From Escherichia coli (GTDB lineage Bacteria; Pseudomonadota; Gammaproteobacteria; Enterobacterales; Enterobacteriaceae), in assembly GCF_024223415.1 (NCBI RefSeq), contig NZ_CP100500.1: a DNA stretch of 64,000 nt; one strand, written 5' to 3'. The notes beneath the pieces were generated by a model. The model made no database searches and had not been told where the DNA came from. It saw nothing but the letters and a program-made list of their open reading frames with translations. Made by a program: the position numbers and the translations under genes. How positions within the stretch are numbered: the first letter of the stretch is position 1; each line of letters opens with the position of its first letter. This document shows, piece by piece, positions 20,412-20,459 of this stretch.

Positions 20412-20459
20412 TCAGGGGAAGGTAAAAAAGAATGCGAAGAAAAACGGTGTGTGTTTCAT
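20412..20459 (-). CDS. pheL: pheA leader peptide, 15 aa ([15 protein letters not shown])
   Basis: ATG ...TGA read directly; 7 Phe codons in 15 residues; below the ORF-track size cut-off. Confidence 0.9.
   Translation of the reverse strand: [15 protein letters not shown]

Follow-up and report, generated by a model that had tools for sequence, protein, structure and literature searches.

Among the closest described systems is the experimentally studied pheA attenuator of Escherichia coli K-12, with its gene for a short leader peptide, PheL (WP_010723158.1). In the mechanism established for this family, which we re-examined here by folding only, the leader would be translated while it is being transcribed. 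Given ample charged tRNA-Phe, the ribosome would translate all seven Phe codons and reach the UGA; the 3:4 terminator would then form, and transcription would end ahead of pheA. If tRNA-Phe runs short, the ribosome would stall in the Phe run, which would leave segment 2 free to pair with segment 3 as the antiterminator, and pheA would be transcribed.

In the enterobacterial group of pheL genes, every position is variable apart from the AUG, the codons for Phe and the UUC_CCC_UGA at the end (Gurvich et al., 2011; PMC3082878). One peptide-dependent property of pheL is known, +1 frameshifting of about 15% at CCC_UGA, and it has no effect on pheA expression in Salmonella (PMC3082878). Wild-type frameshifting needs no more than three native codons ahead of CCC_UGA, and the N-terminal residues are therefore not required for it; a Pro codon at -10, which is codon 5 and adjoins codon 4, has a two-fold effect (PMC3082878). 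Position 4 is not reported as important in that paper, and we found no individual test of it there. The same work gives the pheL nucleotide sequences of S. flexneri 2a and K-12 as identical (PMC3082878, Figure 2 legend). A search for either peptide string, with Thr4 or with Ile4, found no paper in the literature collection that was covered.

The pheL leader and attenuator in the window

The window, by which we mean the whole 64,000-nucleotide stretch of E. coli DNA that was analysed, carries the pheL leader ORF on its minus strand at 20412-20459, where translation gives 15 codons followed by TGA. Phe codons occupy positions 6, 7, 8, 10, 11, 12 and 14 in the layout FFF-A-FFF-T-F, that is, seven of the 15 codons, and the 3' end of the ORF reads ACC TTC CCC TGA. 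Codon 4 (20450-20448, minus strand) is ACA and encodes Thr; its variable base is 20449, a C on the minus strand and a G on the plus strand. A preliminary description of this DNA had the coordinates, the peptide and the ACA codon right and omitted the strand. Read on the plus strand, 20412-20459 gives SGEGKKECEEKRCVFH, which is no leader peptide, so the gene lies on the minus strand. The seven Phe codons, described there as intact, were all found when counted in the translation.

Over its first 25,000 positions (1-25000) the window is identical, in one piece and at 100%, to E. coli KV7 from pig faeces in Denmark (NZ_LT795502.1, 1179939-1204938); only 14 of 5426 genomes reach at least 99% identity over this interval. 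RefSeq annotates pheL in KV7 at 1200350-1200397 on the minus strand, which corresponds exactly to window 20412-20459. The annotated protein, WP_001386991.1 (‘pheA operon leader peptide PheL’; KV7, UTI89, BL21(DE3), EDL933, O104:H4 and others), is identical to that of the window. The feature is thus an ordinary, already annotated pheL with an intact attenuator, and the observation of Thr at position 4 is real but already known. Like the enterobacterial ‘group 1’ pheL genes of Gurvich et al. (2011; PMC3082878), the window's gene has the UUC_CCC_UGA end, the Pro codon at -10 and the conserved Phe codons. We see no difference of substance from that group, in which variation of the non-Phe codons had already been noted.

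The gene for the 386-residue chorismate mutase/prephenate dehydratase PheA (19153..20313, minus strand; from the ORF list and the RefSeq annotation of the identical KV7 sequence) begins 98 nt 3' of the pheL stop codon on the same strand. The Rfam covariance model Phe_leader (RF01859) matches 20335..20460 on the minus strand over its full length, model positions 1-125 of 125, with a score of 132.2 bits, above the gathering cut-off of 55, and E = 1.4e-24. With this full-length match and with pheA directly downstream, pheL is not a chance ORF. In RNAfold the most stable structure of the leader has -51.7 kcal/mol, at z = -6.1 relative to shuffled sequences. In the minimum-free-energy fold, a large 1:2 (pause) hairpin spans 20369..20445 (minus strand), its 5' arm formed by the pheL Phe codons and its pairing as in the Rfam consensus. 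The intrinsic 3:4 terminator hairpin, AAGGCCTCCC-AAATC-GGGGGGCCTT, lies at 20341..20365 (minus strand) in both the terminator scan and the fold. It has 10 pairs, seven of them G-C, followed by TTTTATT with the T-run at 20335-20340, and it is identical in K-12.

Alignment to K-12 MG1655 covered about 220 nt, starting at a TTGACA hexamer 5' of pheL, taking in the leader and terminator and ending in the first pheA codons. The sole difference in this interval is the C/T at 20449, where the T of K-12 makes codon 4 (20448..20450, minus strand) ATA, or Ile, in place of the window's ACA. The preliminary description had given Ile at this position of the K-12 leader, and MG1655 bears that out: K-12 does not carry Thr4. 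Locus, length, the seven Phe codons and the UUC_CCC_UGA end are otherwise the same, and the pause stem, antiterminator and terminator agree with K-12 in every base. This upholds the earlier statement that the attenuator hairpin is intact.

Two other strains depart from this pattern elsewhere in the leader. EDL933 has A in place of G at the equivalent of about window position 20373, within the 3' arm of the 1:2 pause hairpin, where GAAGACGAAC becomes GAAGACAAAC; the window lacks this change. In E. coli PCN061 (NZ_CP006636.1, 2704593-2704637) the pheL stop codon TGA has become AGA, the reading frame continues for at least 30 codons into the attenuator stems, and RefSeq lists the gene as a pseudogene. 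Loss of the stop codon could alter attenuation in that strain.

Codon 4 and attenuation

We hold with very high confidence that the window contains the standard E. coli pheL-pheA attenuator with the common allele of a neutral polymorphism at codon 4, ACA (Thr) as opposed to the ATA (Ile) of K-12. Codon 4 precedes the regulatory Phe codons and all of the stems, so the choice of codon there should make no difference. In the Rfam consensus the unpaired 5' segment comprises model positions 1-15, among them position 12 with the variable base, which lies 5' of all attenuator stems. When folded with RNAfold, the ACA and ATA alleles adopted the same minimum-free-energy structure at -51.7 kcal/mol each, and with 30 nt more upstream sequence they were again equal, at -52.9. 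As the stems are identical to those of K-12 and the fold energy is the same, it is reasonable to expect unchanged attenuation, as had been proposed in the preliminary description. The window's attenuator is that of K-12 except for one unpaired base, which suggests that pheA is controlled here, too, in dependence on Phe and tRNA-Phe.

We imitated successive ribosome positions by masking ORF nucleotides before folding, which is a crude thermodynamic model. With nucleotides 1-37 masked (A site at Phe codon 8), the best fold was the antiterminator, in which GGGAGGC pairs with the 5' arm of the terminator, and no terminator formed. Masking through the pheL stop codon brought the terminator back. 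Within the limits of such modelling, these two results match the classical attenuation model. A 13-nt footprint at codons 12-14 also predicted the terminator, so the outcome depends on the footprint that is assumed.

The alternative that fares best next to neutrality, although we consider it very improbable, is that the change at codon 4 is functional. The AUA of K-12 would slow the leading ribosome early in pheL relative to ACA, ribosome-polymerase coupling and basal read-through into pheA would be altered, and the window allele would correspond to a different level of attenuation. AUA is rarely used in E. coli, and in our folding the antiterminator was already the minimum-free-energy fold when only nucleotides 1-25 were masked, that is, with a ribosome at codon 4. 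With the 30 nt of additional upstream sequence, the ensemble pairing probability of the variable base also differs between alleles, at 0.05 for C and 0.30 for U, although it is low in both. However, the unmasked minimum-free-energy structures of the two alleles are identical, and both alleles are common in natural isolates (see below). Synonymous and N-terminal changes are also without effect on +1 frameshifting as long as three native codons precede CCC_UGA (PMC3082878).

Variation among species argues in the same direction. We scanned a collection of species-representative genomes for the pheL pattern (ATGAAA, nine free bases, FFFAFFF codons, then ANN TTY CC), which yielded at least 120 loci from Enterobacterales, one per species. 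Among the loci listed, 12 different residues, encoded by 28 codons, are found at position 4; the entropy is 2.93 bits, with no sign of constraint. The counts over the 120 loci listed are L 32, V 23, T 22, D 10, F 9 and I 8, the remainder being Q 7, R 4, H 2, P 1, E 1 and S 1. Position 3 is similarly free among these loci. At codon 13, which lies inside the pause stem and where the pattern admits any ANN codon, 117 of the 120 species listed have Thr. The remaining pheL positions were fixed by the search pattern, and their invariance is no evidence.

We regard the Thr/Ile polymorphism as almost certainly neutral, allowing that, judging from the folding, a small kinetic difference between the alleles may exist. 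Any kinetic effect of AUA concerns K-12 and not the window. It might consist of a weak coupling of pheA attenuation to AUA decoding by tRNA-Ile2, or of slightly higher basal read-through, in strains with the K-12-like AUA4, the ancestral ACA being without effect; we would give this a very slim chance. Were it true, what is measured of pheA regulation in K-12 would hold only in part for most E. coli.

Allele frequencies and polarity of the codon-4 change

The preliminary description had proposed a comparison of pheL across E. coli genomes. We used the 48-nt ORF of each allele as a query in 5426 complete E. coli genomes. The exact window allele (Thr4) occurs in 3564 of them, the exact K-12 allele (Ile4) in 1392, and an allele combining Thr4 with Ile13 in 428; by subtraction, about 30 genomes carry other variants. 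A match to the window allele was found in 5414 of the 5426 genomes, and 12 had none. Thr4 thus accounts for about 74% of genomes and Ile4 for about 26%.

The exact window allele spans O157:H7, O26:H11, O104:H4, UTI89 and BL21(DE3). We read Thr4 directly in UTI89, BL21(DE3), O157:H7 EDL933 and O104:H4, all annotated with WP_001386991.1. The K-12 allele is also found in pig, dog, surface-water and human isolates and is therefore not a laboratory artefact. BL21(DE3) has Thr4; if it belongs to phylogroup A, as it is generally classified, that group is not uniformly Ile4.

The third common allele, in which codon 13 changes from ACC to ATC (Ile13) inside the pause stem, is carried by E. coli 89-3156, among others. 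Two further changes are linked with it, a T-to-A substitution immediately 3' of the stop codon and a terminator G-run that is shorter by one G. BL21(DE3) shares both of these linked changes and keeps Thr13.

These frequencies bear on the use of the codon as a marker. That Thr4 is a rare, derived, lineage-specific change by which the strain could be identified has next to no chance of being right. Thr4 does differ from the K-12 reference, but the allele counts refute its rarity: the exact allele spans the strains and serotypes named above, and Thr4 recurs in three outgroup Escherichia. The preliminary description had called it a useful strain marker. It does separate K-12-like genomes from the rest, but since roughly three quarters of E. 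coli have Thr4, its resolution is very low and it says only that a genome is not K-12-like. An error in sequencing or assembly as the source of the C at 20449 can be dismissed outright, given that the identical 48 nt stand in 3564 independent complete genomes and that the first 25 kb of the window agree in full with KV7.

The polarity of the change was read from the same scan of species representatives. The loci listed include three from non-coli Escherichia and none from E. fergusonii, E. marmotae or Salmonella. E. albertii pheL begins MKHTP, with ACT (Thr) at codon 4, and those of E. whittamii and Escherichia sp. E1V33 begin MKQTP, both with ACG (Thr). Their pheA genes share 90.4%, 93.2% and 92.6% identity, respectively, with that of the window, and among the loci listed those of other genera reach at most 82%. 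We take the three species as true close outgroups because of this gap, 90-93% versus at most 82%. Their leaders have Thr4 and the same core and attenuator layout as the window; they differ from it in using other Thr codons (ACT, ACG), in having Gln3 in two cases and in a few substitutions in the leader RNA. By parsimony, the Thr shared at position 4 by all three outgroups indicates that Thr4 is probably ancestral in Escherichia and that the K-12-like ATA was derived from it by a C-to-T transition. The polarity implied when Thr4 was first presented as the variant is therefore reversed: Thr4 is the majority state, it is found in the outgroups, and it is K-12 that differs. The lesson is one of reference bias, in which the window appears to carry a variant and yet K-12 has the minority, derived allele. 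Otherwise the finding of Thr4 matters very little.

The pheL-pheA neighbourhood and other RNA genes

Upstream of pheL, on the same strand, lie raiA and bamD. A TTGACA hexamer at 20509..20514 (minus strand), read from the sequence and invariant relative to K-12, is likely to be the -35 element of the pheA promoter; a consensus promoter scan gave no full sigma-70 match at pheL-pheA. The terminator scan found a terminator-like hairpin 3' of raiA at 20520..20539 (minus strand), with eight pairs, six of them G-C, followed by TTTTGTT, which marks the upstream boundary of the pheL-pheA unit.

Insertions interrupt this neighbourhood in some strains. NCTC10444 (E. coli) and several genomes that are otherwise 99-100% like the window have an IS4 element between bamD and raiA. 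Its insertion site in NCTC10444 corresponds to about window 20950-21170, and the window itself lacks the element. In 89-3156, a phage integrase CDS lies directly 5' of pheL at the usual place of raiA, which points to integration of an element between raiA and pheL.

Further Rfam matches in the window were all full-length and above their gathering scores. They comprise tmRNA (ssrA; 2214-2576, minus strand), the RyfD sRNA (23766-23904, plus strand), a complete rRNA operon with 16S, tRNA, 23S and 5S genes (26901-31901, plus strand), the AsrC antisense RNA (49957-50788, minus strand), the rncO leader (53571-53785, plus strand) and the ohsC antitoxin sRNA (57198-57274, minus strand).
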